Below, piece by piece: positions 13,908-34,055 of a DNA stretch of 51,718 nt. Origin of the DNA: a virus; the IMG/VR virus record IMGVR_UViG_3300013383_000248; one strand, written 5' to 3'. Numbering within the stretch: the stretch's first letter is position 1; the number at the start of each line of letters is the position of its first letter. Under the pieces are notes generated by a model, which worked only from the letters and a program-made list of their open reading frames with translations, was not told the DNA's origin and searched no databases. Both the position numbers and the translations under genes were made by a program.

Positions 13908-14687
13908 TTAAATGCGGTCAATATTTTTTACTTCATCGCCCATGGTTCGATGCCATAGAAAAATATCTTCAAAGCAATCAATACAATTAAAATAAAAGAT
14001 ATTACTTCTATCTACAAAACGGTCAACATGATGATGGCCGCTAAGCCACACATCATATGTAATCATATCTTTAATAGTCTCAAGCCATTCTTCCATAGAC
14101 TTATCTACATTGCCTTGATCTACAAATGAAAGAAATTTATCAACAGGCCTAAGAGAATAAGGACAAGTGTGTGAAAGCACAAGGTCAAAATGCTTACCGC
14201 TTTGTCGAATAAGTCTTTCTACTTCAGCCTTTTCTGTTTCAGTCAACTGTTCATCTTCCCACCAAGGAAGATTATTCTTAATACGGTAATATTTATCAAT
14301 AGAGTAAGCTCCGCTAATCACCAACGTGCGATACTCGCCAATCTCTGACTTGAGATAATAAATACCGTAATTATCAAAATATCTAATCAAAGGATAAGTT
14401 GGTTCATACCATACATTAGCCTGAACATTATTATCCCAAATGCGTTGCATACCTTCAACGTTCTCAGGACGAACTTCGTGATTGCCACGCACACAATAAA
14501 TAGTATAACCATATTTACTTGCATATTCTTTTTTAATTGTGTCATGTAGAATATTATCAGTATTAAATCCAACATCGCCAAGAATAATAATTCCATAATC
14601 TTTTGGATTTAAGATTTTAAACATATGTGCATTGAGCCATGTGAAATCTCCGTGGCAATCGCCCTTCACGATGTAGTCCTTGAACAT
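13908..14687 (-). CDS. calcineurin-type metallophosphoesterase (259 aa), candidate RNA 2-prime,3-prime end-healing phosphatase
   Basis: motifs GDCHGD, GDVGFN(TD), GNHE, GHHH. Confidence 0.7.
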   Translation of the reverse strand: MFKDYIVKGDCHGDFTWLNAHMFKILNPKDYGIIILGDVGFNTDNILHDTIKKEYASKYGYTIYCVRGNHEVRPENVEGMQRIWDNNVQANVWYEPTYPLIRYFDNYGIYYLKSEIGEYRTLVISGAYSIDKYYRIKNNLPWWEDEQLTETEKAEVERLIRQSGKHFDLVLSHTCPYSLRPVDKFLSFVDQGNVDKSMEEWLETIKDMITYDVWLSGHHHVDRFVDRSNIFYFNCIDCFEDIFLWHRTMGDEVKNIDRI

Positions 14688-14700
14688 TGAAGTTCCCTCC

Positions 14701-14889
14701 TTATGTATTTTCTTCTGCTAGTTCCTTTTTTAGTTCCTCTACTTTTTCAACAACAGCACTAAGTACAACAGCCTGTGCAGCGAAACTAGTAAAATGTTCA
14801 GTCAGCCATTTAGCAAGACTATCAAAATTACTTTCAATTTCTTCAATATCTCGATTATCAATATCGACAGTCATATTATCTTCAAACAT
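14701..14889 (-). CDS. small acidic hypothetical protein (62 aa)
   Basis: ORF between phosphoesterase and nucleotidyltransferase, start/stop overlaps. Confidence 0.3.
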   Translation of the reverse strand: MFEDNMTVDIDNRDIEEIESNFDSLAKWLTEHFTSFAAQAVVLSAVVEKVEELKKELAEENT

Positions 14890-15688
14890 CCAGCATTTCC
14901 TTTACTACTCTTTTTTTCATAATTTTATAAACAACTTTATTCATAAGGTCTTCTACTTCTTTATTACCTTCATCTTTTGTCTTAGCACAATAAGCATCAG
15001 CCATAAGAACAATATTATTAAGGCTAGTCTTTGCAGTATATCTTGCTGTCTCAAGATCATAGCGATAATTCTTTACGTCAAGAAGATAACTAGCCAGTGG
15101 CGCTTGAAGGCAATCGGCATATTTAACGCCTTCAATATAACGTACAAGATACTTTTCAATACGAAGCAAATGGAGTAATTGCTTTGAATCATATTGGTAT
15201 TTATCAATTAAATCAATTTTACTAGGATACCTATGTTCCATTGCATGGAACTTCTCCATAGCGATACCCTTCATAGTCTTAACAGCTTTATAAGGATTAT
15301 AACGTGCAATAGCCTCACGTTCATTAAGCAGTTCCTGCCATTCATTCCAATACTCACTTGATGTAATTTTATAAGGCGTAAAGATACATTCAAGATAAGC
15401 CATATTCTGTTTCTTTAGGCAATTAATAAACAGACGAATATCTTTAAAATCAATGTGTTCATCATTCTTACGAACCAAAGTTTTAGATACAGGTTGCTTA
15501 TTCAACACAATATCTTCAAAAGAAGGAAGAACAATAAGCCGCGTATCTACATCAGAAGCGGCCGTATCAAGACCATAATTCTGACTACCATAAGCCATAA
15601 TAGAAACTCTATCTCTAGAGTCTACCTTAGCATCTTCAATATGATCAAATAGTTTATCCATAACCCATTGATTAGAATGGTAATTCAT
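14882..15688 (-). CDS. Pol-beta superfamily nucleotidyltransferase (268 aa)
   Basis: AYGSQNYGLDTAASDVDTR = GS-x9-DxD minimal NTase signature; adjacent to phosphoesterase. Confidence 0.6.
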   Translation of the reverse strand: MNYHSNQWVMDKLFDHIEDAKVDSRDRVSIMAYGSQNYGLDTAASDVDTRLIVLPSFEDIVLNKQPVSKTLVRKNDEHIDFKDIRLFINCLKKQNMAYLECIFTPYKITSSEYWNEWQELLNEREAIARYNPYKAVKTMKGIAMEKFHAMEHRYPSKIDLIDKYQYDSKQLLHLLRIEKYLVRYIEGVKYADCLQAPLASYLLDVKNYRYDLETARYTAKTSLNNIVLMADAYCAKTKDEGNKEVEDLMNKVVYKIMKKRVVKEMLDV

Positions 15689-15702
15689 AAATTATCAACT
15701 CC

Positions 15703-15987
15703 TTAAATCATAGAAAATTCTTCATCTTCAAAGATTCCTTCATATACAAATCCAATAGTATCAGAATAAACATTATCAATAGCGTCATATTCATTTACAC
15801 GCGAATAGCCCCAGTAATATCTGCTTTCTCCAGCGGCCTTGCGAATAATATCATTTGCATAGTTTGCATCAATCGCCGCGACCAGACTAAATCCATGCCA
15901 ACCCAGTTGCGGCTCAATTAAATATACTTTACATTTATATTCAGTCATCTGTATCTTCCTCCAGCCACCATTCACTACCAGTTTCAT
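15703..15987 (-). CDS. hypothetical protein (94 aa)
   Basis: ORF in operon. Confidence 0.4.
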   Translation of the reverse strand: MKLVVNGGWRKIQMTEYKCKVYLIEPQLGWHGFSLVAAIDANYANDIIRKAAGESRYYWGYSRVNEYDAIDNVYSDTIGFVYEGIFEDEEFSMI

Positions 15988-16079
15988 TAAACACTAAACG
16001 TAAAGGAATTTTTTCTTCATCTTTTTTTAAAAAAATTCTTAAATTTTTTGTTTTAGAAAAAGATTGTCTCCCCATTCTA

Positions 16080-16556
16080 TCATATACTTGAAGCCAAGTC
16101 CGAATCTTTTTCATCAGGAATCTCCTTCACGACCCATCTATCTTTATTTTCTTCAGTAGCATTAATGCAATGAAAATCACTACAATAACCACAATTCTCA
16201 GCAATCATTTGATGGTCGTTATCTTTATGCAAGGCACAACCATAAGGCCCGCCATTTACAATCTGGGTATTTCCATCTTTGTCTTCTGCGAAAAAATAAT
16301 CCTGAATAACATACTTGCAAAAATCGCAGCAGGCAAAGCGGAGACACTCTTCTGAACACGCAATCATTTTATGAATCATTTTTTTCTCCTTTTCATAATA
16401 AGGACATCTTGCACAAGTCCAAGAAAAAATTTCTTTTTTCTTTTCATCCTTTATGCAATAATATTTATAATCAGGATGATCAAATACATCGCTGTGCCAA
16501 GGAGTCGTATCTTCATAACTAAAATAAATACATTCAGCCATATTACTCTTCAACAA
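16080..16556 (-). CDS. Cys-rich hypothetical protein (158 aa; 19 Cys)
   Basis: CARCPYY...ACSEEC...CCDFC...CGYCSDFHC motifs. Confidence 0.4.
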   Translation of the reverse strand: MLKSNMAECIYFSYEDTTPWHSDVFDHPDYKYYCIKDEKKKEIFSWTCARCPYYEKEKKMIHKMIACSEECLRFACCDFCKYVIQDYFFAEDKDGNTQIVNGGPYGCALHKDNDHQMIAENCGYCSDFHCINATEENKDRWVVKEIPDEKDSDLASSI

Positions 16557-17011
16557 AATGAATAATTAAATCATAACCATCATCAGTTTCGACCATTTCG
16601 TAGGGATGCATAGTATTAATTTTATAACCTTCACGCTTTTGAATCTCAACTCCTTGAGAACTACCAAATTTATTGGGAAAAATACGAATCTTGCTAGAAG
16701 TATAATTCCAAGAAGAAATAATAATAGCGGCAACAGCTACTATCAATAAAACTGTAACAATAGCTTTTTTAATCATCTAACATATCCTTCCAAGAACAAG
16801 CATTAAGCCAATATCGTGTTTGATTATTTTCATCTTTAGAACTGCCGGCTAAACCCTGACCAATAAGGCCACGCATTACACCTGATGCACCCTGCGGCGT
16901 AATATCAAAATCAAACTTGCGTTTTGCAAATGCTGAAATCTGCTTTGCAGTAAGAGTGCCACATTCACTAAGAACTTTAATTACAGCCTTTTTCTTTTCC
17001 ATTACATCCAA
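16543..17011 (-). CDS. two small proteins: membrane protein 16543..16776 (77 aa) and hypothetical 16769..17011 (80 aa)
   Basis: overlapping start/stop; first has hydrophobic N-terminal helix. Confidence 0.35.
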
Positions 17012-17460
17012 TCCTCACTTGTTCTATCGTCATCAGGTCTTTCAAGATTTTCCATATCATTAATTCGGATGGGTTCCCAATTATAATGTGCATGATGCAG
17101 CCAGTCTTCCTTATCCCAAGACTCTACTTCTTTTCTAATCTCTTGGATTTGCTGAAGTCTATTACGAGTTTCAACAATTTCTCGTTCACAATGATTAAAA
17201 TTACTCTTAGAAGCTCTTGTACTTAACTGCCCCTGTTTTGGTGCGTGCAAATAAAAATTACAATTCTGAATATATCTATCAAGTTTTTTTTTGTAATCCT
17301 TTTCTGTTTCATTAACGCCTTCAAGATGATTACGCTTATGTTGCTCCATCCATGAGCTATTATAAACAGCATCTAAATATTCAGTCAACTTATCTTCAGT
17401 CAGATAAGCAATATCATATTCATCCCAAGCATTGCCACGGCTTACTTTATAGATAGTCAT
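17002..17460 (-). CDS. hypothetical protein (152 aa)
   Basis: ORF preceded by AT-rich promoter 17477-17514. Confidence 0.4.
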   Translation of the reverse strand: MTIYKVSRGNAWDEYDIAYLTEDKLTEYLDAVYNSSWMEQHKRNHLEGVNETEKDYKKKLDRYIQNCNFYLHAPKQGQLSTRASKSNFNHCEREIVETRNRLQQIQEIRKEVESWDKEDWLHHAHYNWEPIRINDMENLERPDDDRTSEDWM

Positions 17461-17539
17461 ATATCTCCCATCCTTTCTATATATATTATATCAAATTTTT
17501 TATAAATTTTCGAGTTTTTAATTTTGACAAGAGTTTAAA

Positions 17540-19219
17540 CTAAACATAATCGTTAGGGTAAGTTCTCTTTAAATATTCCTTGGCACTAACAATAGGTCCT
17601 TTATCCTGAAGGAAGGGACGCCAGATTTTTTCATCTACCTTATCAACATCAATATATTGATAATCGCCCCATTCATCCACTTCCTTCGGCACATCATCAA
17701 AATCATAATCATCATAGCAATCATCACAAACATCAAAAGGTCCTTTGACATCACGCTGATGCTTACCATTAGGAGTTTTTACTACAAACATATAAGGCAA
17801 ACTCTGCTTCTTAAAATCATAGTCAAGCCATTTACGCTCATCACAGCAGCTGCAGGTCGCCATACGTCCATCTGCACACCAACTGCAATAGGCAGCACCA
17901 GTCCAATTATTGAACCAAGCTTCACTTTCATCAATCCAAGAACCGCACTCATCGCACTGAATCTTGCCTTCGCAGCTTGCACATACAACCTTGTCAGAGT
18001 CAGTAAATGCATCCACATTTCCAGAAGGCTCAACATGGTAACCTTTGCCACAACACATACATTCTGTTTCGCCAGAGTAATTAATTTCTACTTCATCTAC
18101 TGTTGGATTAATATAAGCAGAATGATTATCATAGTAATCATTATACATAGCACCGGTCTTCATACGAATGAATACTTCGCCAAAGTTAGTTGTATTCTTT
18201 TGGTTCTGCCAAACTTCATACATCTTATCATCATAATGCCAGCCCATATTTTCCTCGGCCAGTTTCTTGATTTTATTCATAACAAAATCACGCAGATAAA
18301 TATTGAAATAAGGATACTGCTTTACCTCAGTAATAATATCCTTATTAACAATATACAAACAACGCCAACGCTTATTGCTCCAAGTTCTTTCGGTATCCTG
18401 CCCATAATAGTTAAGAGGATAATAAGGATGGTCAGACTCAACATATGCTTCAAGAACAACAGGCGAGTTCATCATTTCAATAGTGCCAAGACGATAATCG
18501 CCACCGTTATACCAGTTCATGCAACTATCCCAATTGCAATCATTATCACTCATAGTAAGATAATCAAGCGGATGAATGGACAGTACAAGGTCAGCATCAA
18601 TCATTCGGTCATTCAGAACACGGGAATGGAGAATACGGAATTGCTCAAATGCATCTTTATCCAATTCAAACCAATCAACAATCTTAGCCATCATTCGCAT
18701 AAGCTTCATATCAGTCTTAAGCTCAAGCGGCTTAGACCCTTCAGCATGCGGGCCACGATTAAGAACAACAGACTTGGGACCCCAATCAAGCATATACTGA
18801 TTCTTATTAACAACAAGGGATTCAGTATCAAGACAATGCTCAATGATGGCACAACAATACATACGCTCATCTTTGTCAAGAGTTGTATCCATCCAATGAT
18901 AATATGTAGAAGTAATTTGCTCGTAAGCATTAATGAAATCTTTCACTTTTTCCAATTCAGGATTATTATAGATTTCATCATACATTTCATTAATCTTATC
19001 TGCCAAATCATCATTAGAAGCTTCATATCTGATGTGCTTTTTAACCATCAGATTATTGCCGAGAAGCTCAAACAGTTCAGGCTTTTCCGCAGCCCAAAAC
19101 CGCAGCAGGTGATTGATTTCATCTACATCATTACATTCATCAGAATGAAGATACATTTTAATATAATCACTCAAAAGAGTTTTTTCTTCTTCCGGAATAA
19201 GTGTTCTTAAGTCTGTCAT
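17540..19219 (-). CDS. large Cys-rich paralog P3 (559 aa)
   Basis: core SIHPLDYLTMSDNDCNWDSC...YRLGTIEMMNSP, C-terminal CMCCGK..CASC..CDEC..CSWC..CSCC..CDDC ribbons; N-terminus alignable with P2. Confidence 0.6.
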   Translation of the reverse strand: MTDLRTLIPEEEKTLLSDYIKMYLHSDECNDVDEINHLLRFWAAEKPELFELLGNNLMVKKHIRYEASNDDLADKINEMYDEIYNNPELEKVKDFINAYEQITSTYYHWMDTTLDKDERMYCCAIIEHCLDTESLVVNKNQYMLDWGPKSVVLNRGPHAEGSKPLELKTDMKLMRMMAKIVDWFELDKDAFEQFRILHSRVLNDRMIDADLVLSIHPLDYLTMSDNDCNWDSCMNWYNGGDYRLGTIEMMNSPVVLEAYVESDHPYYPLNYYGQDTERTWSNKRWRCLYIVNKDIITEVKQYPYFNIYLRDFVMNKIKKLAEENMGWHYDDKMYEVWQNQKNTTNFGEVFIRMKTGAMYNDYYDNHSAYINPTVDEVEINYSGETECMCCGKGYHVEPSGNVDAFTDSDKVVCASCEGKIQCDECGSWIDESEAWFNNWTGAAYCSWCADGRMATCSCCDERKWLDYDFKKQSLPYMFVVKTPNGKHQRDVKGPFDVCDDCYDDYDFDDVPKEVDEWGDYQYIDVDKVDEKIWRPFLQDKGPIVSAKEYLKRTYPNDYV

Positions 19220-19279
19220 TTTAATTCACCTTTTCCTTTTAATTTATATATATATTTTATAATATTTTTTTATAAAAAG

Positions 19280-19310
19280 AAAATAGACCCCGGAAACCGA
19301 GGTCTATTTT
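19280..19310 (-). terminator. rho-independent terminator
   Basis: aaaatagaccccggaaaccgaggtctatttt. Confidence 0.6.
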
Positions 19311-19364
19311 CTGAGGGAGGCGTTTTTTCAAACTCGCTCTTCAAAAAAACTCTTTATACTAACC

Positions 19365-21205: not shown

Positions 21206-21297
21206 ATTAATTACTCCTTATTTTTATTTAATTGAAAATGTAATATTCAATTATTTTCTATAAATATTATATAATATTTTTTTAAATTTTTCAAATT

Positions 21298-21894
21298 TTA
21301 ACTACAAGTAATAGAACCAAAAGGCTTATCAGAAAGAGTCGCTGTTTTAGTCGGCTTCTTAATAATTTCTACAGTGCCATCTTCATTAACTTTGCACATA
21401 TAAATATTATTAAGGTCAGCATCTTCTTCGATAGTTTTCTTAATCAATCGTACACTTTCAACTGTTGCCTTATGAATTGCCTTTTGGCTTTCTTCTTTGA
21501 GCGCCCGGCAATCTTCTTTCATAAGGTCGCAGAATTCAAGACCTTTAAGCAATTCAGCTTCTTGCTTTTCTCTATTTTTTTTATTTTCCCACCATCGAAT
21601 AAATTTACGATATTCTTTATAAGAATCAAAATATACATAAAAATTATTTTCTTCACCATTACGAGTACGTTTGCCAGTCTTATAAGAAATACTATTGCTA
21701 CTGATATTCCATTTGTCAGGCTTAATAACAGAATATTTCATCATTTCATCGAAGGTAAGTTCAACAGTTTTTTCATGCCATTTAGTAACCTCAAATTTAA
21801 AACTTTTATAATTCTCCCAATCTTTAAAATAACTAAATACTAAAAAACAGCCAACAGCAAATACAAAAAAGATACCCAAGATAATCCAAAACAT
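21298..21894 (-). CDS. membrane-anchored hypothetical protein (198 aa)
   Basis: N-terminal TM helix MFWIILGIFFVFAVGCFLVF. Confidence 0.4.
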   Translation of the reverse strand: MFWIILGIFFVFAVGCFLVFSYFKDWENYKSFKFEVTKWHEKTVELTFDEMMKYSVIKPDKWNISSNSISYKTGKRTRNGEENNFYVYFDSYKEYRKFIRWWENKKNREKQEAELLKGLEFCDLMKEDCRALKEESQKAIHKATVESVRLIKKTIEEDADLNNIYMCKVNEDGTVEIIKKPTKTATLSDKPFGSITCS

Positions 21895-22430
21895 TATTCT
21901 TTATCCTCCTTCTTCGGCCGCAAATCGTGGTCTTCTCCATTATAGATTTCACGATACTTAGTAAAGAAAATACCATCATTAAAATGATATTCAATTTTAT
22001 TCCAACCTTTATAATGGTCAGTAAGATTAGGCCAATCTACAATACATGCCTGCCGCTCAAGCTCTTGCTGCGGCACTACTCTATGTCTCTTGGAGTTCCA
22101 TTCTTTTGAATTTTCTACACTAGCAATGATAACAATAAGCTGGTAGTTATCAAAGCCGGGGAAACGGCTTCTGATTTCTTCTCTCTGTCCAAGAGTCAAG
22201 CAGTTAGTATCAATGACAATATCGGCACCATCCATCTCTGCACAATGAACAATCTGATAAAGAGTCTGCCATACTTCAAACTTATGTCTGCGGTCGCATT
22301 CATCGCCATTAAAAACGGCATACAATTCATCAGGATTTACATAGCGGATTGAATTCATTCTTGCGAAGGATTTCGCGTAAGTAGTCTTGCCGTTCGCGCT
22401 CAGTCCGCACATCATATATAGCGTCGCCAT
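21894..22430 (-). CDS. polynucleotide 5-prime kinase domain protein (T4 Pnk kinase-like P-loop kinase)
   Basis: Walker A GLSANGKTT; IVIDTNCLTLGQREEIRSRF aligns with T4 Pnk ISDTNLNPERRLAWETF; AAAGGAG RBS before ATG at ~22430. Confidence 0.65.
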   Translation of the reverse strand: MATLYMMCGLSANGKTTYAKSFARMNSIRYVNPDELYAVFNGDECDRRHKFEVWQTLYQIVHCAEMDGADIVIDTNCLTLGQREEIRSRFPGFDNYQLIVIIASVENSKEWNSKRHRVVPQQELERQACIVDWPNLTDHYKGWNKIEYHFNDGIFFTKYREIYNGEDHDLRPKKEDKE

Positions 22431-23059
22431 CAATTCCGTCTCCTTTCAATTTACTTGCTAATTCGTATTCTACATATATATCTATAGGGTCTTTGCTATC
22501 TACCTTTTCAACGCTATATACTTCACGGCCTTGAAGAATAGCAATATAAATATCATTTTCATATTGAATCAATTTCTTATGCCATCTACTAGACCCACAG
22601 TCCCAAGTATCTTGAAGAATAATCTTGCCTGAATGAAGAAGCATATAATATTTTTCAACTGCATACTCTCGACTGATACGATTCATTAAAAGGTCAAGAT
22701 AACTAAAGATAAAAGGATTGCCTGGGCCGCCTGTGCTAGTTTTCCATATATCACTAGGCTTAATATCTAATAGCTTTTTAGTCTTTTCATCCATTGCTCA
22801 TTTCAATCCTTTTATCATAATTTCTTTTATCAGAAATAGGTTCACAAAAAATGACTACTCCATTGCGCATCCAATCTAAATAAATAATATCATCTACATT
22901 GATAATGCGCAGACGATAATGATTCGGACCTTCACTTGTTTCGTTATCATAAATAACAGTACCATACTTAAGAGCACTAGAATGCTTTTGGTCAATTAAA
23001 TCTTGATAAATTCTATCAGCATATTTATCAGTGATATCCATCCAGTTATCCAATTTCAC
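22330..23059 (-). CDS. two hypothetical proteins 22330..22794 (154 aa) and 22787..23059 (90 aa)
   Basis: ORFs; the first overlaps the kinase gene start by ~100 nt in another frame so its true extent is uncertain. Confidence 0.3.
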
Positions 23060-23756
23060 TACACCTCGTCAAATAAGTAATCTTCTGCTTTTGGTAAGTG
23101 CCGAGAGATTTAATAGTTCCCTTGATAGTAAGCTCTTTACCAATCTCCCAATTCTTTGCTGCTGTGCTCCAGCAATAGAGGTTTTCATCAGCATCAATAA
23201 AGGTCATAATATGATTGACGCCATAATAATTTTCAGTTTCAATATTCTTAATTACTTTTACTTTGCGCTCTATCTTGTCTCCAACTTCACCCTGATAGCA
23301 ACTCTTCCCTTCATCATAGAGAAGATTCTCGACTACCTTATTAATAACTGCTGTATCTTTCAGAGTGCCGTCGTCATTACCTACGAGCTCCCAGGGCAGC
23401 TGCACGGGCGTAATACCCTCCGGCACATCTGCCGGAACTTCTTCTGTAGAAACAACATACCACTTAAACATAGTGTGGAAACGAGCATTAGAACGTTCAA
23501 ACCATTCAAGATTTTCAAATGTATTGCCTTTAAAGATGGTAATATAACCATTATCAAAACCAAGAATATGCTTACGATTGCCGGGCTTAATAACTTTCAC
23601 AGGAGGATAATAGCGGTCATACTCTGACTGAGTATAGCTCTTGACTTTCTTGACCTTGCCATCCTTAGTCCGCACATCACAATAGCGTTTACCATTTTCA
23701 ATGTAGGTATCACGCACGATTTCCAAATCCTGATAAGACTTAGCAACAAGTGCCAT
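23046..23756 (-). CDS. hypothetical protein (236 aa)
   Basis: ORF, no recognized motif. Confidence 0.4.
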   Translation of the reverse strand: MALVAKSYQDLEIVRDTYIENGKRYCDVRTKDGKVKKVKSYTQSEYDRYYPPVKVIKPGNRKHILGFDNGYITIFKGNTFENLEWFERSNARFHTMFKWYVVSTEEVPADVPEGITPVQLPWELVGNDDGTLKDTAVINKVVENLLYDEGKSCYQGEVGDKIERKVKVIKNIETENYYGVNHIMTFIDADENLYCWSTAAKNWEIGKELTIKGTIKSLGTYQKQKITYLTRCSEIG

Positions 23757-24717
23757 TATCTATCACCCTCCTCAAAAAGCTGCTTATAAAGAATATCAAG
23801 AGCCAGGTCGATTTCTTCTGCTTCATCATTGTCAATATACTCATAATTGCTTACGCAGAGATCAACAATCTTATTATAAGCATTAACAACTTCTTCATTC
23901 TTAATCTTGTTCATAATACCGTCTCCTTTAAAATTCTTTATATTTCCCATTTCTTTATATATATATTTTATAATATTTTTTTATAAAAATAAAAGAGAGA
24001 TCTTTTATCAAGATCCCTCTTTATAATCAATTAATTCAATTTCAGACCAGAACGGCTGCTCATACCAACTCGTCCAAGGATTCTTTCTAAAGAATTGATG
24101 AATACGCACTTTTTCATTAAACTCTTTTACTTGGGTATAATACAATTCATTTACACCCACTCTAGAGGTTTCAAGGAAACTATCATGATGTTCTACCTGA
24201 TAAACAATAATATCACGTTCGGCTTCTACGTTAGCACGGTCAGTAGGTTCACTAATTCCTTGACTAATAAATACAATTGTGCTAATGATTACAAAAAGAC
24301 CAAGAAGGCAAGCAACTGTAAATGGAACAACGCTCCAATTATTAAATTTATTACTTAAATAATTAGCTAGAATAGCACCGCCCACACAAATAATAATAGC
24401 AAGCAAATAAAATAACATAATTATTCCTCCACTGTTTTATAACCTTCGACATCTACTTCGGCCATACAGCCAATGTCGAAATCTTCATCATCTTCTGGAA
24501 CATTATAATCTGCTTTTGCAGCTTCAATAAAATCTGCAATAGACCATCCGTAGCCCTGCCAATTGTCAACCCCACCAACTTCTAGTGCCTGTAGCTTTAA
24601 ACTATCATATAATAGGTCAGCTAACTCACTTTTTGGAACAAGACAATAAATCATGTTACCACTTATTCCCCTTTCTATAATTATACCAATAAACGCCACC
24701 AATGATACCAATAGCAA
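23756..24717 (-). CDS. three small proteins: acidic 23756..23950 (64 aa), membrane 24008..24418 (136 aa), acidic 24421..24717 (98 aa)
   Basis: ORFs separated by promoter/terminator at 23951-24007 (aagagagatcttttatcaagatccctcttt). Confidence 0.35.
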
Positions 24718-24743: not shown

Positions 24744-26873
24744 TTAGTTCTCCTTTTTATCTTCAAGATTAAAAATTGTTTTTAATTCTTCTACTTTATC
24801 AAGCTGTTCCCATGGGCTATTACATTCAACGCGACCAAAATGGCCGAAGCAGGCATAAGGAAGGTAGCGTATATGTTTTAGGTCAAACTGATGAATGATA
24901 CTGCGTGGTGCAAAATCAAATGTTTGATTAACTGCATCAAGGATTTCAGCAATAGGCTTCTTCTCTGTGCCGAAACAATTAATATCAATAGACGCCGGTT
25001 CCGTTTGACCAATGATATAGGCCACTTGAATCATGCACTTATCGCATACTCCTGATGCAACAAGATTTTTAGCCACATAACGTGCCATATATGCACCACT
25101 GCGGTCTACCTTACTTGGGTCTTTACCTGAAAAACAATTACCTGTAATGAAAACTCTATTATTATATCTTAATACAAGGTTATGAGAAGACACATTAATA
25201 CAATACATCCACGGGTCATTATCCTCATAATCTTCAATAGTTAAATTTGCGATTGAAGGGCCTGAAGTTCTAAATGGAGTAGAATATTTATATTTACCTT
25301 GTCTTACTTCATAACAGATACTCTTACGAGCATAATTTTCTTTAAATGTTTCATCTACTCTATCATCAATAGAAAAATGAGAAGATGTGCCATATACTGA
25401 CATAAAAATAAATTGTATAAAATCAGCTTCATCTTTATGAGTAGTTCTAAATACACAATCTCTATCTCCATCCCATTTAATTACCTCATCAGCAATTACT
25501 TGGGCCTGATGTAGATTACATTTAGACAAACATTCATTCATTTTTTTATTTACAAAAGAGGGCTTATACCAAAAGATGTTATATTCTTTATCTGTAGTTT
25601 CATTATAATTAAATCCTGTTGAAGCAAATAGTTCCCTTAATGCTTCTTTTTTATATTCTTTTTTAACTCTGATTCTTCCAGTCCATCCTGAATTTTCTTT
25701 TAAAATAGACCCATCTGCACAAAATGCTATTTGCAATCTAATTTCATCATCAGTTAAATTAAGACCAGGATTATCTTTAAAATCATAAGTAAAATAGATA
25801 GGGATTTGAACACTTCTAAAACCGTTATTTTTATAATAATGATCTAGAATTTCTTGGCAAGTTTTCTTTTGATAATTACCTTTAGATGTTCTATACAGGA
25901 CGTTATGATTGTCAGATAATACCATATCTAAAGATTTATTAGTAGCAATATGATACATCTTAGTCTTAGGAAGTCTTATAAATTCACCATTAACAAATGA
26001 AATCTTACCATCATCCCATTGAGCTACTTTATCATCAGAAGAAAATTCAGAAATCTTTTTCCAACCATTAAGAGTTAAAAATTCTGTATCTCCATTTACA
26101 CATCCGCCGCCATGAGGTGCATATCCGCCATACGTATCTACAACAATCTTACGACCGGTCAATCCTGTATCAGCCTTGGGACCGCCTTCTACAAACTTGC
26201 CTGTTGGATTAATATAAAATTTACAATCTTTTTTAATGGCATAACCTTGAAGGGCAATATTACAAATGTTCGTAATATCAGGCGTAATCTCTTTAATACT
26301 ATATTTGTCTTTATGTTGGGCTGATACGACAATTGTATCAATCCCTTCAAAGTTGCCATTATCATCATATTGGACAGTTACTTGGCATTTACCGTCAGGC
26401 AATGCCCAAGGAAGTAAATCATTCTTATACTTGCTGAACATAATGACCGAGATATTATTAGCAAGTTGCTGGGCAATAGGCATATAGTTTTCTGTCTCAT
26501 TAGTTGCATAACCAAACATCATACCTTGGTCGCCCGCACCATCCCTATCAACACCCGCAGCGATGTCAGGAGATTGATTTACTACATTAATAATATATGA
26601 ACAAGTGTCGCAGTTAAATCCTGCTTCATCATTGTCATAACCAATAAATCTAAGAGTCTCTCTTGCAATTTCCTGATAAGGAATAGACTGATTTGTCTTA
26701 GCCGTAATCTCTCCCATAATATGGAAGATACTCGGACTAATAGTACATTCACAAGCTACTCGTGCATCAGGGTCGAGCTGGAGGACATAATCTAGGATAG
26801 CATCACTTACCTAATCACAAACTTTATCTGGATGACCCGCAAAAACACTTTCACTAGTAAATAAATAACTCAT
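24744..26873 (-). CDS. metK: S-adenosylmethionine synthetase (MetK) interrupted by an intein; 709 aa precursor; one TAG codon at 26811-26813 aligning with conserved Gln
   Basis: [30 protein letters not shown] (E. coli HPDKIADQISD); GAGDQGMMFGYA; GGPKADTGLTGRKIVVDTYGGYAPHGGG | intein | CFSGKDPSKVDRSGAYMARY; GGAGG RBS. Confidence 0.85.
25137..26102 (-). mobile_element. intein (322 aa) with LAGLIDADG-type homing endonuclease, inserted in MetK after HGGG
   Basis: starts CVNGDTEFLTLNGW, contains IRLQIAFCADGSIL (LAGLIDADG-like), ends VFITGN followed by +1 Cys of CFSGKD. Confidence 0.7.
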
Positions 26874-26895
26874 ATAAAATATTTCCTCCTTTATT

Positions 26896-26934
26896 TTATA
26901 TAAATATTATATAATATTATTTTTTATTTTTCAA
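26896..26934 (-). promoter_or_regulatory. AT-rich sigma70-type promoter copy
   Basis: ttatataaatattatataatattattttttatttttcaa. Confidence 0.5.
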
Positions 26935-27364
26935 CTTTCTCTATCTTACAATAACAAGCGGCGTAAAAATCTTCTTTATCATCGTATTCATCACGATGTT
27001 CCGGCCACCAGTCAGCTGTTAACTCTTCTTTCATCCAATGCTCAAATTGCTCTACGCTATCTGAGCCATTGGCGACAAGCCAAGTGCTATATTCTCCATA
27101 AGGCGTATAACCTGTAAGCCTAAAACAATCTTCATTCTTTTTTCTACGTGCTTCATCTGTGATTAATGTTTTAGTATAATAACACTGACCTAATGCATCT
27201 GCTACATTAATATATTTATCTTGATGATTTTCATAACATTTAAATGCTACTTCCATTAGCATATCACCAATAATATCATACAAACGTGTTTCGGCGACTG
27301 TTGCACGTATCTGTTCATGATCTCCTTCTGGCGACCAGAATTCATATAAATATTCCTATGACAT
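26924..27364 (-). CDS. hypothetical protein (146 aa) with TAG as codon 3
   Basis: GGAGGATAAT-ATG-TCA-TAG-GAA...: MS-TAG-EYLYEFWSPEGDHEQIRATVAETR continuous with track ORF 26924..27283. Confidence 0.5.
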
Positions 27365-27392
27365 ATTATCCTCCTTTGCCCAAAATGGCTTG

Positions 27393-27421
27393 ACTATAAT
27401 TAAAAATTTTTGTATAATATA
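27393..27421 (+). promoter_or_regulatory. plus-strand TTGACT-N17-TATAAT promoter inside a minus-strand gene block (possible antisense/sRNA promoter)
   Basis: ttgactataattaaaaatttttgtataat perfect spacing; no plus-strand ORF follows. Confidence 0.3.
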
Positions 27422-27559
27422 TTTAGAAAATAGTTTTAAATAAAATTTTATTAATCTTCCAAATGTAAACGCAAATAAATAGCTACTCCTAAAAGGATTA
27501 GACCCGGAATGAGAAACCATAGCGGGTCTATTGTAGAATGAATAATTGCCAACATTAAC

Positions 27560-28018
27560 TTAATGACCAAAATACAACCACCACTTTGCTGTAGATACAC
27601 TAGCCAAGTCAAGTTTACAGTTTTTAATACTTACCAGATATTCATTATAAATTTCCAATTGCCGTCTAACTAGTTCACTACTAGATAGTTCAGGATAAAT
27701 AGAGGCAAAGATAACAGCATTTTCAGGAGTCAGTGCAGCGTATGTATCTTTTTCATGGTTGAGATAATTAGCCACTACATCATTGATTGTCTCTTGGATT
27801 GTCTGCATTTCAGTTTCATATACTTCAATCTGTTTATTATATTCAGGCACCTTGCCAATTACAGATCCGCAAATAATAAGGCCAAGAACAGCAAAAGCAA
27901 TAACAACGCCACCAACAACCTGATATCCATAGCCAGCATCATCATAATGGCTTCTAGCCTTAATAATGCCACCAATAATCATAAGAGCAATGCCAATTAC
28001 AAGAGCTGCAAGAACCAT
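27560..28018 (-). CDS. membrane protein (152 aa, two N-terminal TM helices)
   Basis: MVLAALVIGIALMIIGGII...VVIAFAVLGLIICGSVIG. Confidence 0.45.
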   Translation of the reverse strand: MVLAALVIGIALMIIGGIIKARSHYDDAGYGYQVVGGVVIAFAVLGLIICGSVIGKVPEYNKQIEVYETEMQTIQETINDVVANYLNHEKDTYAALTPENAVIFASIYPELSSSELVRRQLEIYNEYLVSIKNCKLDLASVSTAKWWLYFGH

Positions 28019-29373
28019 TACTTATCCTCCATGTTGCAATCACAAACGAACTTATTTACCCATTCCCAAAAATGATAACCATTAAACATGGTGAAATCAA
28101 GGTCGTCAAATCTATGACTATTAAGCCAATTAGTTTTCTTATCATAAATAGTTAGATATACAGCTGCATAATTGCCGCTGCCATCTGTATAAGTGCCATA
28201 AAAAATATCATCGCAATAGACCACGAATCTGCCTTGCCACAGAGGGTCGTGCTTCAGGTTAATGTTCATATCCTTAATACGCCGCACAATCTTACGTTTC
28301 AGATTCTTTCTACTGTTGGAACTATGGGAGCCTTCCCAATACTTATGTCCTTTATCCATTACTTCTTCCACTCCTTAATTCTATATTGATACATACCCTT
28401 AGAATAATCTGTCGGGTCTTTAACTACTACAAAAATTGCATCATAATAAGGCGGATTATCAATAACAGTATAATCAATATCCTTATGGTACCCACATCTA
28501 TCAAGAGCAATTTTAACTGTCTTAATCATGCCTTCACGCACAATCCAAATGCTATGAGTGTTAGCCAGATTTGCCTGTACCATCATTGCACTATCAGGAA
28601 TAGATTTCAATGCTTTATAAATAACTCTACTTGCGCAGTCCTTCTCGCCGATTACCCCTTCTGCAATCAGCCTATCTTCGTCAGTCTTTACCATTGTTTT
28701 ACATCCTCCACATAAATAAATTCAAGAAATTTGTCTACATAAGACATAAATGCCCACTTACCTTGGCCAAGGAGACAAGATGTTTCATAAAGAAACCACT
28801 GTTCTGCGGCCTCAAGACTCGTCTCATAGATTTGCTTTTGGATATAATAGATAAGTTCATCAGCCACATCTTCCACAACCGTTCGCCGCACTTCTTCAAT
28901 TTCTGCATATGTTTTAATCCAAGGGAGTCTGCGGTCAAGGGTGATAAAATCATATGTATCCATAAAATCATAGTCGCCATTATCAAGCGGCAAATGATTA
29001 ATAACAATAAGTCCACCCATTAATATGCCCTTTCTACAAAGTAAGTACCAAAAATAGGCGGATATTCTCCAAATATTTCATTGAACTTCTCTTCCATCTT
29101 ATGTTCCAAATCTACATTAATGTCAAGATGATTAAGACGCTGGTAATCAAAAGTAGCATCCATATCAATACTGAAAAGACGATAGCCAAAGAAAATATGA
29201 TTCATCCAATCAGTACTAAAGCAATCAGCCACTACATAATCTTCATCTTGAAGCATTTCAAATGCTTCATCAGGATCAATCTTCACTCTTTCACAATATT
29301 CTTTAAACGAAGGAATATTATCTTCGCCAAACATAAAGCCGCGGCCAACGAATGCTTCATAATCAACACTCAT
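28018..29373 (-). CDS. four tightly packed hypothetical proteins: 28018..28371, 28359..28694, 28688..29020, 29020..29373
   Basis: overlapping start/stops (operon), no recognized motifs. Confidence 0.4.
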
Positions 29374-29481
29374 AAGGTTATTGCCTCCTTGTCAATTTTT
29401 TTATTTCTCATTTCTTTATATAAATATTATATAATATTTTTTTATAAAAATAAATAAGCCGATTGGGGCTAACCAACCGAC

Positions 29482-30636
29482 TTATGTAATAGGTTTAGAG
29501 ATTCCAGGAGGAAGTGTAATATATGTTTCATCACTAATGGCATTCCAGAGACATAGCCATTTACGATAATCATTATATTCTTTGTAATGAAGCGTCTTTA
29601 CATTAGGTACTTCATCTTCAGTACATACTTTAATAAATACTGTATTATTATCAAGATTATATGTTTGATAATATCCATTATCCAAAAGGACAACTACAGA
29701 ATTATCTGCACCCCATTGGATATATGTATTTTCAGAGAAGGATTGAAGCTCGTGATAATTTTCTATTTCAACTACTGAGTTCTCTTTGCTATCAGAAACT
29801 TCACAATAAATAATTGATAGGAAACCACTAATGCAAAGAGCTACTGCACACGTGGCAAATAGGGTAAAGAAAACTTCGCTCTTAAACCAATCCCAAATCT
29901 CTGAGAAGCCATAGTATTTAACATATCGATAAATACTATACATAATAGTAATAACAATAGCAATTATAAAGAAAATCATTCTTCTACTTCTCCCCCCCCC
30001 ATAAACTCAATAAAGCTGCGATTTTCAAGAGCATTAATAGTAAAATAATGATGATGAAGATCTGTACTACCAGGAGTTCCTACAATTGCCAGTTCATACC
30101 AATTTTTTTCAATTTTACGAATATACATAATAGGAATAAGTGCAGTGTTAATACGAATAGGATATTTATGGCCCTCAACTTTAACTTTATAAATCATATA
30201 TTAGCTCCACAATTTACACAATAAGTTTTTTCATCAACAATAAGAACTTGGTCATTCTTGAGGATGGCGCCGCACCTGACACAATGCGGTGGATTAGAGC
30301 AGAAGAATTTGCAGCCTGGATCTTCCTCATCGACACGCAAGCCAGAAATGATGCGGCATTGGCCTTGAATGCGGTAGCCGCATCTGCCGCACCTTTGCAA
30401 ACTCACCAAATTACATTCTCCTGAATGACATTAAGAGCTTCAGGACTTACTTCAAGACAATCATCCGGTGAAAATGCTTCTAGCTCTACTTTGTTAATGC
30501 TGTCAAAGTATTTACAAATCTTTTCCATAGCATCAGTATAACCTTCTTCATCAATCTCATTGCCGGCGTACACTAGCCCTGTTTCATCTCTTGGCTTATC
30601 ATCAAAATTCCAATTTACTTTATATCTAAAATACAT
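29482..30636 (-). CDS. four small proteins: TM protein 29482..29979, 29976..30197, Zn-ribbon protein 30194..30409 (CGRCGY..CVRCG..CVNCG), 30403..30636
   Basis: overlapping ORFs downstream of promoter 29405-29450. Confidence 0.4.
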
Positions 30637-30912
30637 TTAATCCTCCAAACTCGGCACTGTTCTAATATAGTAATTATATGCACCGATATATAAGCAGATG
30701 CATTCGTTAGTGCATTTATATTTGTCTAGTTGTTTACGGAATTCTTCAAGCTCTTCTTCAAGCGTGTCACTATCGCCGCAAATGTTAATACCATAGTTAA
30801 ATTCTTCAAAATCTTCTTCTTCGGCTACAGAGAGAATGAATTCTTCTGCTGTAGTTCGACTATCACAAACAATAATGCTACTATTACAAGTATTCCAAAC
30901 TACATATTTCAT
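30637..30912 (-). CDS. acidic small-protein family member 1 of 5 (91 aa)
   Basis: shared motif TTAEEFILSVAEEEDF; head-to-tail with four paralogs. Confidence 0.5.
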   Translation of the reverse strand: MKYVVWNTCNSSIIVCDSRTTAEEFILSVAEEEDFEEFNYGINICGDSDTLEEELEEFRKQLDKYKCTNECICLYIGAYNYYIRTVPSLED

Positions 30913-31199
30913 TAATCAGGCATCTCGCTTTCATAGATTTCACGAAGGAATAGAATAGATGCTTCACTTAACATATAATGTTCAAAACTTTTATGTCGAG
31001 TAATAGCTTTATCTTCCCAATTAGACAGAACATATACGCCACTAGGGACAAGAGCATATGCGATATCGCTATTAAACATATCCAAAGCTTTTTCTTCAGC
31101 ACATGATAGGATAAACTCTTCAGCATCGCCACGAGTTTTAAAGGAATAAACTCCAAGAATCATTTCATAGTCAGCTTCAATAACTGTATAAATTTTCAT
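30912..31199 (-). CDS. acidic small-protein family member 2 of 5 (95 aa)
   Basis: GDAEEFILSCAEEKAL. Confidence 0.5.
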   Translation of the reverse strand: MKIYTVIEADYEMILGVYSFKTRGDAEEFILSCAEEKALDMFNSDIAYALVPSGVYVLSNWEDKAITRHKSFEHYMLSEASILFLREIYESEMPD

Positions 31200-31201
31200 A
31201 G

Positions 31202-31477
31202 TTAATATTCTCCCAATTCTTCAATAATAAATCGGCCGCTCATAAACCAAAGAGCGGTGCCATAATGAGTTCTACATTTTACTTCTGGACGCCTTGATTT
31301 TCTAAATTCAAAACTATTATTAAAAAAATTATCTACACCTTCATACATTGCTTGATAATATACATCTTCTTCAGTTAATGCAAGGATAAGCTCTTCTGCA
31401 TCAGTTCGTGTATTACAAATGTATCGAGGAATTTCACAACAAGCATCATCATCAATTTCAGAGATTAGATATTTCAT
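31202..31477 (-). CDS. acidic small-protein family member 3 of 5 (91 aa)
   Basis: TDAEELILALTEEDVY. Confidence 0.5.
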   Translation of the reverse strand: MKYLISEIDDDACCEIPRYICNTRTDAEELILALTEEDVYYQAMYEGVDNFFNNSFEFRKSRRPEVKCRTHYGTALWFMSGRFIIEELGEY

Positions 31478-31816
31478 TTAATATTCCTCCCCAATAGAAT
31501 AATTATAATAGTCGGCAGCCATAAGAAGAGTCCAAGCATAAAAAGAAATATTATTATCATCGCCAAGCGGAAATCTAGATTTATTATACTCTTTCCATTC
31601 AAGAATTTTATCATTGAGATAAATTTCCATAGGATTTTCACCAGGCTTTACTGTAATTCCTGTTTCATCATAATAATAATCATCAAGGAATGCATTATAT
31701 GCTTCTTCCTCGGCTGCGGCAAGAATCAGTTCCTGTGCATCTGCTTCAGTATCACAAATACCAAGAATACCGGGATAGAAATTATCAAAATAATCATAAA
31801 CTACATATTTCTTCAT
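31478..31816 (-). CDS. acidic small-protein family member 4 of 5 (112 aa)
   Basis: ADAQELILAAAEEEAY. Confidence 0.5.
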   Translation of the reverse strand: MKKYVVYDYFDNFYPGILGICDTEADAQELILAAAEEEAYNAFLDDYYYDETGITVKPGENPMEIYLNDKILEWKEYNKSRFPLGDDNNISFYAWTLLMAADYYNYSIGEEY

Positions 31817-31818
31817 AA

Positions 31819-32112
31819 TTAGAATACCTCCACTTCGTCAATATTATAAGCACTTACGCACATAAGAGAATAACAAGACAACAACATATCCTTTCTATTA
31901 TCATTATCCTTATATTCTTTCCATTTATTAAGAACATCTTCGGCGGTGTTTAGGTCAGCCCAATAATCATCAAAAAGATAATCACAGAACCACTGGAAAT
32001 CTCCTTCTTCAGCACAAGCAAGGACGAATTCTTCTGCATCTGCACGTTCGGCAAATGCGATACCAGTATTTGCGTTATCATAGATATCGAAGATAGCATA
32101 AACTTTCTGCAT
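31819..32112 (-). CDS. acidic small-protein family member 5 of 5 (97 aa)
   Basis: ADAEEFVLACAEEGDF. Confidence 0.5.
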   Translation of the reverse strand: MQKVYAIFDIYDNANTGIAFAERADAEEFVLACAEEGDFQWFCDYLFDDYWADLNTAEDVLNKWKEYKDNDNRKDMLLSCYSLMCVSAYNIDEVEVF

Positions 32113-32114
32113 AA

Positions 32115-32683
32115 TTAATTTTCCTCCAAGACTTTGTTAATAAAATAATTAATAATTCTATTGCCTTTGGGGTCTGTGCCTGTATCTACATAAAGGAGGA
32201 TTTCTTTAGGGTCTTCGGGCATCATCGCAGGAGGGTGGTCGCGCATAAATTGTGCCATTTTCTCAATAGTTTTAATGAGGACTTGAGTTTTTTCCATTCT
32301 TTATTTCCTCCTTTATTTTATATATATATTTTAACAAATTTTTTTATAAAAATAAAAAAAGCTAGATTTCTCTAGCTTCTTTCTTATTTATCTACTTCTT
32401 CAACAATTACAATAGCATTATGAATAACAATACGATGGCCATCATAATCGAAGAATGTTTCATTTTCTGATTCGCTAATATCAATCATTGCCGGGCCGTA
32501 TTCACGCAAAAGATTGCTATTGTAATCATATACAGATACAATACGGTAAAGACCACCGGTGTAATTGCTCTTCCAGCTTTTAAGGGTGCGCTGAAAGCCT
32601 TCACCGCTAAACATAAGAACCAACAGACCAATTACAAGGGCAACAACAATAATAATTGTAATAATACTACTAGTGCTTCTCAT
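32115..32683 (-). CDS. two small proteins: 32115..32297 (60 aa) and membrane protein 32384..32683 (99 aa)
   Basis: ORFs flanking terminator/promoter at 32300-32383 (aaaaaaagctagatttctctagctt). Confidence 0.35.
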
Positions 32684-32684
32684 A

Positions 32685-34055
32685 TCAATTCTCCTCCAAA
32701 GTCATTTCTTCCTCAATTTCTTCCATATCAGGCATTTCGGCATCAACCTTAATTAGGTTCTCTAGTACTTTAAAATTATAAGATTTGTCTTTTGCAACAT
32801 CAAAGCGTGTGCCGTTCATCTTGCGAACAACTATGCCTTCAATAACATGAGAAGAATCAATTGTAGAAGGAATATCCTCATACTTAGCAATTCGTGCAAG
32901 GAAATCCTCTTCAGTAGTATAGATGAAACGTTCCAGTTCAGGTACAGTTTCAAAGCCCATCTGCTCTGCACGCTGCTTAACAAGATCCCAAGGATATTCA
33001 ATTACTACGCCTTCAGGGGTAGTATAAGTCATACGATAAACAAAATAGCGATTAAGAGGCTTATCATCACCAGTAGGAGAACAACCATAAGAAAAGGTGG
33101 TAGTCTTACCATACTGTTTAATAAATGCTTTATCTTTAGTTTTAGTGTTATCGCCCGGCGTCATAATAGGCGCGTTAGATGCATAGAAGCCTGCAATTTC
33201 GCCAAAGCATTCCTCATTCGGCAGAAGTTTACCCTTGAAGCGTTCGCCCCAAGCTCTACGGAAATCATCATTACCATAGAAACCGCCAGTGCTATTGTTA
33301 GTAAGAACAGTGCGGCGAGTGCCAATCAGATAACGCATTTCAGTCTTGGGAGTGAGATGAGACTGTGCGGACATACGCCATTTCTTCGGCAGCCAATTGC
33401 TATGTGCAATAAGCTTGGTAAGGAAGAAACCCTTCTCACCAATAATTGCAGTCTGATAAGCATTACGAGAGCTAGTACCGTGAACCTTTTCGGTCAAACA
33501 GATAATATCACCCGGCTTAAACATATCCATATTAAAACGAAGCTGCGGAGTATCAATATGTTCTGCGAAGAATGGATACTTAATACGACATTTCTTTGCA
33601 GACTTACGGTCGCGTTCGCCGCGTGCAGTAGACTGAGAAGCTCTGGGCTTATGCATCGGCACATACTTCTCGGCAATAACATGACCATTAAAGGTAGATA
33701 CAATATCACCTTCGGCCAAGTTGCTAATGTCGCCAAAAGGAGCAAGACAAGTAAGCGGAAGAACAAGGCCTTCAGACTTATTGCCACGCAGTCGAATTGC
33801 GCCTACATTACGCTTTACAGGGTCAATAAAACCACCTGCCGGATTACCATTTTCATCTTTGCGGCGGAAAAGGTCATTCGCCTTACCAAATTCTTCACTA
33901 ATCTGACCGTCCGTGGGGAAATAGACGTAAAGGTCATTTTCATTTACGGACTTATCAACAATGGTAGTGATACCAAATACTTCACAGGCATTCAGACGGT
34001 CAGCATTCTCCGCAGGTCTAATGTTTTTTACTTTACAAACATATACATTATACAT
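32685..34055 (-). CDS. ATP-dependent RNA ligase (Rnl2/Rnl5-like nucleotidyltransferase; 456 aa)
   Basis: motif I TEKVHGTS (KxHG lysine adenylyltransferase motif as in T4 Rnl2 KIHGTN), N-terminal OB-like domain. Confidence 0.65.
   Translation of the reverse strand: MYNVYVCKVKNIRPAENADRLNACEVFGITTIVDKSVNENDLYVYFPTDGQISEEFGKANDLFRRKDENGNPAGGFIDPVKRNVGAIRLRGNKSEGLVLPLTCLAPFGDISNLAEGDIVSTFNGHVIAEKYVPMHKPRASQSTARGERDRKSAKKCRIKYPFFAEHIDTPQLRFNMDMFKPGDIICLTEKVHGTSSRNAYQTAIIGEKGFFLTKLIAHSNWLPKKWRMSAQSHLTPKTEMRYLIGTRRTVLTNNSTGGFYGNDDFRRAWGERFKGKLLPNEECFGEIAGFYASNAPIMTPGDNTKTKDKAFIKQYGKTTTFSYGCSPTGDDKPLNRYFVYRMTYTTPEGVVIEYPWDLVKQRAEQMGFETVPELERFIYTTEEDFLARIAKYEDIPSTIDSSHVIEGIVVRKMNGTRFDVAKDKSYNFKVLENLIKVDAEMPDMEEIEEEMTLEEN

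Follow-up and report, generated by a model that had tools for sequence, protein, structure and literature searches.

A putative RNA end-healing and sealing gene set scattered over 20 kb in a large uncultivated phage, with a stand-alone metallophosphoesterase as candidate partner of RlaP

Bacteriophage T4 counters the anticodon nuclease PrrC with Pnkp and Rnl1, which heal the 5′-OH terminus and the 2′,3′-cyclic phosphate terminus and then seal the break, and bacterial Pnkp/Hen1 systems (Clostridium thermocellum Pnkp; Capnocytophaga Pnkp1-Rnl-Hen1) are another group of related systems. Fusions of a kinase with an HD phosphohydrolase domain form a third group of healing enzymes, of which Runella slithyformis HD-Pnk is reportedly an example. 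The RNA repair sets of large phages bring together tRNAs, RNA ligases, polynucleotide kinases, RlaP and phosphatases, and a few of these phages have a calcineurin-like or HD-like enzyme as the repair phosphatase (Iyer et al. 2021, PMC7824862). Enzymes of the RlaP family add one or two nucleoside monophosphates (NMPs) to the 3′-OH of RNA and favour damaged RNA, an activity known from Pseudomonas enzymes only; T4 also has an RlaP, NrdC.11, and RlaP has been proposed as the antidote to RloC-type nucleases, which trim 3′ ends (PMC12776372). In this work, we analyzed a stretch of 51,718 nucleotides from the IMG/VR virus record IMGVR_UViG_3300013383_000248 (hereafter the window), in which four scattered genes probably make up an RNA repair pathway.

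The window (51.7 kb, ~34% GC) carries almost all of its genes on the minus strand and comes from an uncultivated, low-GC tailed phage of ~190 kb. A megablast search with 22 kb of it against deposited phages gave no match. Metagenomic viral contigs of 137-195 kb encode its proteins at 77-100% identity, and the closest cultured relatives of its ligase, at 39-43% identity, come from Bacillus and Lysinibacillus phages of ~165 kb. The initial annotation had assigned five open reading frames (ORFs) to an RNA end-healing and sealing toolkit at 13908-34055. All five are present at the positions it gave, on the minus strand and in the superfamilies it named, although the HAD ORF falls outside that range. 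The features on which the analysis turns are as follows.

13908-14687, minus strand: MPE1, a stand-alone binuclear metallophosphoesterase (PF00149, phrog_1649) and the proposed RNA 3′-end healer.
13901-13920, minus strand: an intrinsic-terminator-like hairpin and T-run at the MPE1 stop codon (consensus match only).
14701-14889, minus strand: a 62-aa ORF between RlaP and MPE1, with 8 nt of overlap between its start and the RlaP stop.
14882-15688, minus strand: a Pol-beta nucleotidyltransferase of the RlaP family (PF10127, phrog_388).
21894-22430, minus strand: a stand-alone P-loop kinase of the polynucleotide 5′-kinase clade, 178 aa (AAA_33, phrog_505), without an HD domain.
32685-34055, minus strand: an ATP-dependent, Rnl5-like RNA ligase with an OB domain at the N terminus (about aa 1-130), followed by a nucleotidyltransferase domain.
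44973-45446, minus strand: a weakly HAD-like protein with a D8-L-D10-G-T motif (PF00702, E=0.019, under the cut-off).

We fetched 80 RlaP-centred viral loci with 10 kb on each side and scanned all collected loci, designated by L numbers, with our own hidden Markov models (HMMs); the counts given below refer to 83 RlaP-containing loci of related phages, 10 kb either side. A homologous ligase lies within this distance of RlaP at 48 of the 83 loci and a homologous kinase at 60, and the ligase is immediately adjacent to RlaP in, for example, L036, L074, L082, L087 and Lysinibacillus phage LC76P1. Two main types of cluster were found, one with RlaP, MPE1 and ligase followed at a distance by the kinase, and the other with ligase, RlaP and a kinase-HD fusion. 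Relatives of the MPE1 type usually have RlaP, MPE1 and ligase in this order, with the kinase ~4-5 kb further. The ligase, RlaP and kinase-HD genes are contiguous in L002 and L004, where RlaP is 49% and the ligase ~43% identical to the window proteins and where the ligase, RlaP and kinase are the only genes of the 20-kb loci that have window homologs; the ligase, RlaP and Pnk-HD genes are likewise consecutive in LC76P1. In Bacillus phage Thrax1, the gene annotated as RNA ligase is directly followed by that of a polynucleotide kinase with an HD domain. A side observation concerns L004, in which a GIY-YIG homing-endonuclease-like ORF (9036-9734) lies between ligase and RlaP, an insertion that the near-identical L002 lacks; mobile elements may contribute to the splitting of the repair cluster.

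The order in the window along the direction of transcription is ligase, 10 kb, kinase, 6 kb, RlaP, the 62-aa ORF and MPE1, which places RlaP and ligase 17 kb apart and spreads the set over 20 kb; the same order is common to the close relatives L005-L008 and L018-L020. These spacings of 6-10 kb, with many unrelated ORFs between the genes, are what would be expected of unrelated auxiliary genes that are present together by coincidence, and the HAD gene does seem unrelated. For the set as a whole, we nevertheless regard coincidence as very improbable, since four of the five genes have homologs that adjoin one another in cultured Bacillus and Lysinibacillus phages as well as in dozens of related contigs, so that their grouping is not due to chance. 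The dispersed toolkit of the initial annotation is therefore real for four genes, and its dispersal in the window is a derived rearrangement of a compact cluster.

We removed the HAD protein, which had been counted as a repair phosphatase, from the system because of its neighbouring gene, its near absence from the surveyed loci and the lack of a match to solved HAD or Pnk phosphatases. Its residues D8, D10, T64, K82 and D123-D124 are invariant and the DxDxT nucleophile motif is present. Its best PHROG is phrog_2643, annotated as "5′-3′ deoxyribonucleotidase" (1e-6), and its upstream neighbour encodes a nucleoside 2-deoxyribosyltransferase (PF05014, 3e-23); in a 54%-identical relative, though not in another relative, the two genes are likewise close together but in the opposite order. 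Only 1 of the 83 loci has a homolog within 10 kb of RlaP, and the gene is 22.5 kb from the window kinase. The family profile searched against the Protein Data Bank (PDB) matched no HAD or Pnk phosphatase at E<=1, the T4 Pnk phosphatase included. Tentatively, the protein probably acts on nucleotides or deoxynucleotides together with the adjacent deoxyribosyltransferase.

The nucleotidyltransferase matches PF10127 ("RNA ligase-associating Pol-beta") at 30.9 bits against a curated cut-off of 23 (E=2.9e-7) and phrog_388 at 5e-19, and a profile search against the PDB gave no useful match. Residues G34-S35, D46-V-D48 and D80/D83 are invariant in six homologs of 33-79% identity. The initial annotation had described a GS-x9-DxD nucleotidyltransferase; the family stands, and the spacer is corrected to GS-x10-DxD. 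By analogy with the Pseudomonas enzymes, the window RlaP is predicted to add one or two nucleotides to an RNA 3′-OH end. The assignment to RlaP fits the role of the nucleotidyltransferase, which had been left open, better than a CCA-adding or cGAS-like function. The characterised RlaPs are encoded in Pseudomonas RtcB-RtcA operons, whereas the partner in the window is an Rnl5-like ligase.

RlaP, the 62-aa ORF and MPE1 form an overlapping or closely packed unit, in which MPE1 is preceded by a GGAGG ribosome-binding site and which is closed by the terminator-like hairpin. The 62-aa ORF is conserved at 59-81% identity in L001 and L018-L020. MPE1 matches Metallophos (PF00149) at E=4e-13 and phrog_1649 at 6e-23. 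Its metal-ligand residues D10, H12, D38, N69, H70, H173, H218 and H220, which fall in the motifs D10-x-H12, G37-D38, G68-N69-H70-E71, H173 and H218-x-H220, are invariant in 25 homologs. The calcineurin-type phosphoesterase of the initial annotation is thus upheld as a PF00149 member with intact metal ligands but not as an enzyme of the lambda-phosphatase/Pnkp type: the GDxxDRG motif and a lambda-phosphatase-like fold are absent from MPE1. The AlphaFold2 model (pLDDT 92.6) is closest in fold to CWF19L1 (Z 15.8), aq_1956 (14.9), Dbr1 (14.0), purple acid phosphatase (13.9) and Mre11/SbcD (~12), and the closest matches include two RNA-lariat enzymes, CWF19L1 and Dbr1. The MPE1 profile found a weak PP2A match only in the PDB. 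The family has >1,500 metagenomic members and is rare in deposited phages (18 matching records), its top matches coming from human faecal samples. From three MPE-seeded contexts, we had taken the adjacency of MPE and RlaP to be limited to the lineage of the window; the RlaP-seeded survey reversed this view, and in L013 an unannotated RlaP lies just upstream of MPE1.

In the survey, MPE1 was found just downstream of RlaP at 39 of the 83 loci, with gaps of -6 to about 1,300 nt, and at 14 of them the gap is 12 nt or less, often with an overlap. A kinase-HD fusion is present at 34 loci, 30 of which have it just downstream of RlaP. MPE1 and the fusion never occur at one locus, and both are missing from 10 loci (Fisher p=1e-14 for the exclusivity, with the relatedness of the loci ignored). 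The two types interleave on a neighbour-joining tree of RlaP, where L093 and L075, of the MPE1 type, lie amid HD-type loci and L041, of the HD type, lies amid MPE1-type loci, which implies that the swap between MPE1 and HD occurred more than once. An MPE thus stands beside RlaP where the kinase has lost its HD domain, as would be expected if the two carry out one and the same function.

The kinase matches AAA_33 at 2.2e-12 and phrog_505 "polynucleotide kinase" at 2e-7, and it aligns to positions 3-159 of 314 in a profile of the kinase-HD fusions (E=1.5e-18), which bears out its initial description as a Pnk-type P-loop 5′ kinase. It is a homolog of the kinase portion of those Pnk-HD fusions that adjoin RlaP and ligase in relatives. 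The P-loop (G9..G14-K15-T), D34 and R115 align with the fusions; we take D34 to be the general-base Asp and R115 the lid Arg, presumably with the roles found in studies of T4 Pnk. A family profile built from the window kinase, a close relative and four Pnk-HD fusion proteins matched the solved kinase of C. thermocellum Pnkp best among Pnkp structures (4gp7, 1.6e-16; the top solved-structure match), followed by Pnkp1 (4xrp, 1.7e-10) and T4 Pnk (1ly1, 1.6e-8), which places the kinase in the same clade as that of T4; it also matched the tRNA kinase PSTK (1e-15). The window kinase alone gave just a weak PSTK match in the PDB (0.16), and PDB searches with the single sequences of MPE1, RlaP and the ligase likewise yielded marginal matches only.

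Kinase homologs with an HD phosphohydrolase domain are encoded at the 34 related loci and by cultured Bacillus and Lysinibacillus phages, whereas the window kinase lacks this domain. In the phage fusions the kinase is N-terminal and the HD domain C-terminal; the order in Runella HD-Pnk is reportedly reversed. The ORF at 21298-21894, directly downstream of the kinase, was considered as a detached HD domain and rejected, since it has an N-terminal hydrophobic stretch and no HD similarity. The ORF at 23046-23756, also near the kinase, shows no similarity to the metallophosphoesterases that flank the kinase of relatives. In L023 (15668-17100 and 19213-19758) and L022 (15279-16537), the kinase is flanked by a lambda-phosphatase/ApaH-like metallophosphoesterase and then by a Metallophos_2 protein, and a NADAR-domain gene lies within the cluster at 16 loci; these lambda-phosphatase-like, Metallophos_2 and NADAR proteins have no homolog in the window. 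Upstream of the kinase, an ORF at 22330-22794 (minus strand) overlaps the kinase coding region by ~100 nt in a different frame; L005, L007 and L008 retain this overlap, although the ORF is only ~50% identical there and its neighbours ~90%.

The ligase matches PF09414 RNA_ligase at 30.8 bits (cut-off 27) and phrog_968 "RNA ligase" at 4e-54, and its motif I reads K190-V-H-G, in agreement with the Rnl-type ligase with a KVHG motif noted initially. The match to the PHA02142 N-terminal OB domain (PF21189) has E=2.8e-5 and 24.9 bits, under the cut-off of 27. Motifs I, Ia, III, IV and V (K190-x-H-G, T246-R-R, E286, E406-G..R411, K422-x-K424) are invariant in 24 homologs. Naegleria NgrRnl is the top match both by sequence profile and by fold, and the signature arrangement of the Rnl5 family, an N-terminal OB domain followed by a C-terminal adenylyltransferase domain, is present as in NgrRnl and Deinococcus DraRnl. 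At 45.6 bits against the TIGR02306 cut-off of 151, however, the protein lies under the Rnl5 family threshold and is a divergent, longer relative: it has 456 aa compared with ~340 aa, with insertions in the nucleotidyltransferase domain. The contexts differ as well, the phage ligase being found among RNA repair genes and DraRnl in a Deinococcus radiation-response operon.

Together, these data led us to a putative pathway, in which the catalytic residues are intact in all four proteins apart from a Tyr at an Arg site of the kinase. When a metal-independent host RNase cuts an RNA, it would leave a 2′,3′-cyclic phosphate and a 5′-OH. MPE1 would then remove the 2′,3′-cyclic or 3′-phosphate to give a 3′-OH, to which RlaP, judging from the biochemistry of its family, might restore one or two nucleotides if the nuclease had also trimmed the 3′ end. 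The stand-alone Pnk-clade kinase is predicted by homology to phosphorylate the 5′-OH, and the Rnl5-like ligase, again by homology, could seal the 3′-OH/5′-PO4 break in the base-paired context of a tRNA stem-loop. We infer the activities of all four enzymes and the RNA target by analogy, and on balance we consider it probable that the phage encodes such a four-enzyme pathway, without the HAD protein, most plausibly for tRNAs cut by host ribotoxins. A counter-defence against anticodon nucleases, which had been suggested initially, would be a reasonable inference from the literature.

Several observations weigh against this reading. The 83 loci share ancestry, so the counts and the Fisher p overstate their independence. 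The window kinase and that of its close relative L007 have a Tyr three residues past the Asp (D-E-L-Y, Y37), where the four Pnk-HD fusions have D-x-[IL]-R; the Arg at the equivalent site of T4 Pnk (R38) is said to be essential by mutagenesis. The structure model of the ligase is moderately confident (pLDDT 65), and Rnl5 ligases seal duplex nicks, DraRnl being tied to post-irradiation DNA repair (PMC5397189). The ligase and kinase might thus serve the repair of DNA or RNA-DNA nicks, such as ribonucleotide nicks or replication and recombination intermediates, much as DraRnl acts in genome reassembly. The Rnl5-like character of the ligase suits such a role, for sealing of duplex nicks by Rnl5 needs only an RNA 3′-OH strand; moreover, loss of DraRnl delays DNA reassembly, and the authors of that work call the physiological roles of Rnl5 and Rnl2 unresolved (PMC5397189). 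However, the ligase is tightly linked to RlaP and to Pnk-HD, and among E. coli macromolecules RlaP acted on RNA only (PMC12776372). In addition, the HD domain of the fusions is most like the HD of CCA-adding tRNA enzymes, and Thrax1 has a separate annotated DNA ligase three genes downstream of its RNA ligase and polynucleotide kinase. Nick repair therefore seems to us a poor bet beside repair of broken RNA.

The weakest link of the RNA repair model is the 3′-end healer. The fold matches of MPE1 are generic phosphodiesterases with small differences in Z, and homologs of 40-45% identity occur without RlaP in unrelated contexts, namely in L011 (DNA ligase/UvrD), L012 (SprT) and an Oscillospirales phage. 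Two more metallophosphoesterases, one lambda-phosphatase-like and one Metallophos_2, usually flank the kinase in those relatives that belong to the MPE1 type or that lack both MPE1 and the fusion, and either of them could be the true 3′ healer. MPE1 may then be a phosphodiesterase for small-molecule signals or for ADP-ribose or NAD products, or have some other early-gene function, and share no more than an early transcription unit with RlaP, with 3′ healing carried out from outside the window or by a host enzyme. Besides the occurrence of the family without RlaP and the additional phosphoesterases of relatives, such a role would agree with the RlaP-MPE1 pair of L013, which lies amid a cREC_REC gene and NAD-salvage genes, with the NADAR gene inside the L023 cluster and with the proposal that calcineurin-like phage phosphodiesterases degrade immune signals (PMC7824862). 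We consider it unlikely for three reasons. MPE1 and the HD of Pnk-HD exclude one another without exception over 73 loci, and the RlaP tree indicates that they were exchanged repeatedly. RlaP and MPE1 are closely spaced at the 14 loci mentioned above. RlaP also requires a 3′-OH substrate, which a 3′-phosphoesterase would supply (PMC12776372). Beyond the role of MPE1 as a healer, we put forward, as a tentative idea that we would not yet call probable, that RlaP and MPE1 are a dedicated RNA 3′-end remodelling pair, in which MPE1 clears or trims the end and RlaP refills it; that this pair took the place of the HD domain of kinase-HD fusions on repeated occasions in a large group of uncultivated phages of ~100-200 kb; and that it may give Rnl5-type ligases a role in RNA repair.

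A system of this kind has already been described. In the accounts of RlaP-associated repair systems (Burroughs and Aravind 2016, as cited in PMC12776372 and PMC7824862; Iyer et al. 2021; Carruthers, Fatma and Huang 2025), the components are, as in the window, a 5′-phosphate RNA ligase, a kinase, a phosphoesterase and RlaP, together with phage tRNAs. The window differs from the known RlaP systems in that RlaP is gene-coupled to a distinct stand-alone metallophosphoesterase and the set is scattered. What is new is modest, consisting of the Rnl5-like partner ligase, of the coupling of RlaP to a stand-alone metallophosphoesterase that alternates with kinase-HD and of the rarity of MPE1 among deposited phages. 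The likeness to Pnkp/Hen1 and T4 Pnk/Rnl drawn initially holds for the heal-and-seal set of four families linked in relatives, and a metallophosphoesterase as proposed 3′ healer is shared with the bacterial systems; the analogy to Hen1 is loose, as Pfam scans of the 93 window ORFs found no Hen1-like methyltransferase and the only methyltransferase is a C5 cytosine DNA methyltransferase. Pfam scans of the remaining window ORFs for RtcB, 2H, cRec, Macro/NADAR, Thg1, CCA-adding and Hen1 proteins found none of these.

The other genes of the window provide the context of the set. The tRNA genes lie at one end of it.

538-6632, minus strand: five or six tRNA genes (ARAGORN and Rfam), interspersed with other genes and taken as context only.

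Some of the tRNA calls are odd (3847-3917, 6561-6632 and 1465-1519, minus strand). ARAGORN reports a tRNA-Phe with anticodon AAA and one tRNA with a two-base "anticodon", Rfam adds a short tRNA-like match of 55 nt that is missing from the ARAGORN output, and the ARAGORN tRNA-Leu at 3987-4071 is not among the Rfam matches. Amid the tRNA genes lies a DAHP/KDO8P-synthase-family gene (1934-2638, minus strand; PF00793, 7e-65). One small ORF of the window is a type II chorismate mutase (PF01817, 1.3e-13), probably the 91-aa ORF at 34241-34516 (minus strand), immediately upstream of the ligase; this placement comes only from phmmer with a query that we take to be E. coli PheA (E=1e-5). The two genes may be auxiliary genes of aromatic amino acid synthesis. 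Between the tRNA and repair genes are the C5 cytosine DNA methyltransferase (5070-5981, minus strand; PF00145, 8e-35) and an M28/M42-like peptidase (8444-9451, minus strand; phrog_34186, 7e-42). Three large paralogous ORFs of 403-559 aa flank the RlaP-MPE1 unit (7152-8363, 10967-12601 and 17540-19219, minus strand) and have no Pfam match; a major-vault-protein shoulder domain is present in the large ORF that precedes RlaP in the relatives L003 and L013.

The gene for MetK, S-adenosylmethionine synthetase (24744-26717, minus strand), contains an intein-like insertion of ~322 aa (aa 206-527), which starts with Cys (CVNGDT...), ends with ITGN followed by Cys and splits the conserved GGG/AFSGKD motif. 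The insert matches PhoH-like and terminase P-loop PHROGs, and the relatives L005 and L007 carry an uninterrupted MetK allele (...APHGGGAFSGKD). Directly downstream of MetK, a small ORF (24421-24717, minus strand) resembles the T7 gp5.9 RecBCD inhibitor: PF25708 matches one small ORF of the window (2.9e-10), which was placed at 24421-24717 by tblastn with the L013 homolog (1e-11).

Repair of RNA is an acknowledged means of counter-defence in phages, and few systems other than that of T4 have been tested. The value of the present locus lies in testable candidates rather than in a new principle. The only biochemical study of RlaP leaves the upstream 3′-clearing step undefined, and MPE1 is a candidate partner of RlaP. 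The gene context also argues for an RNA-repair role of Rnl5-type ligases. Finally, the three interchangeable layouts found in these phages, namely RlaP-MPE1, kinase-HD and kinase with Metallophos_2, amount to a natural experiment on which enzymes can substitute for one another in 3′-end healing.

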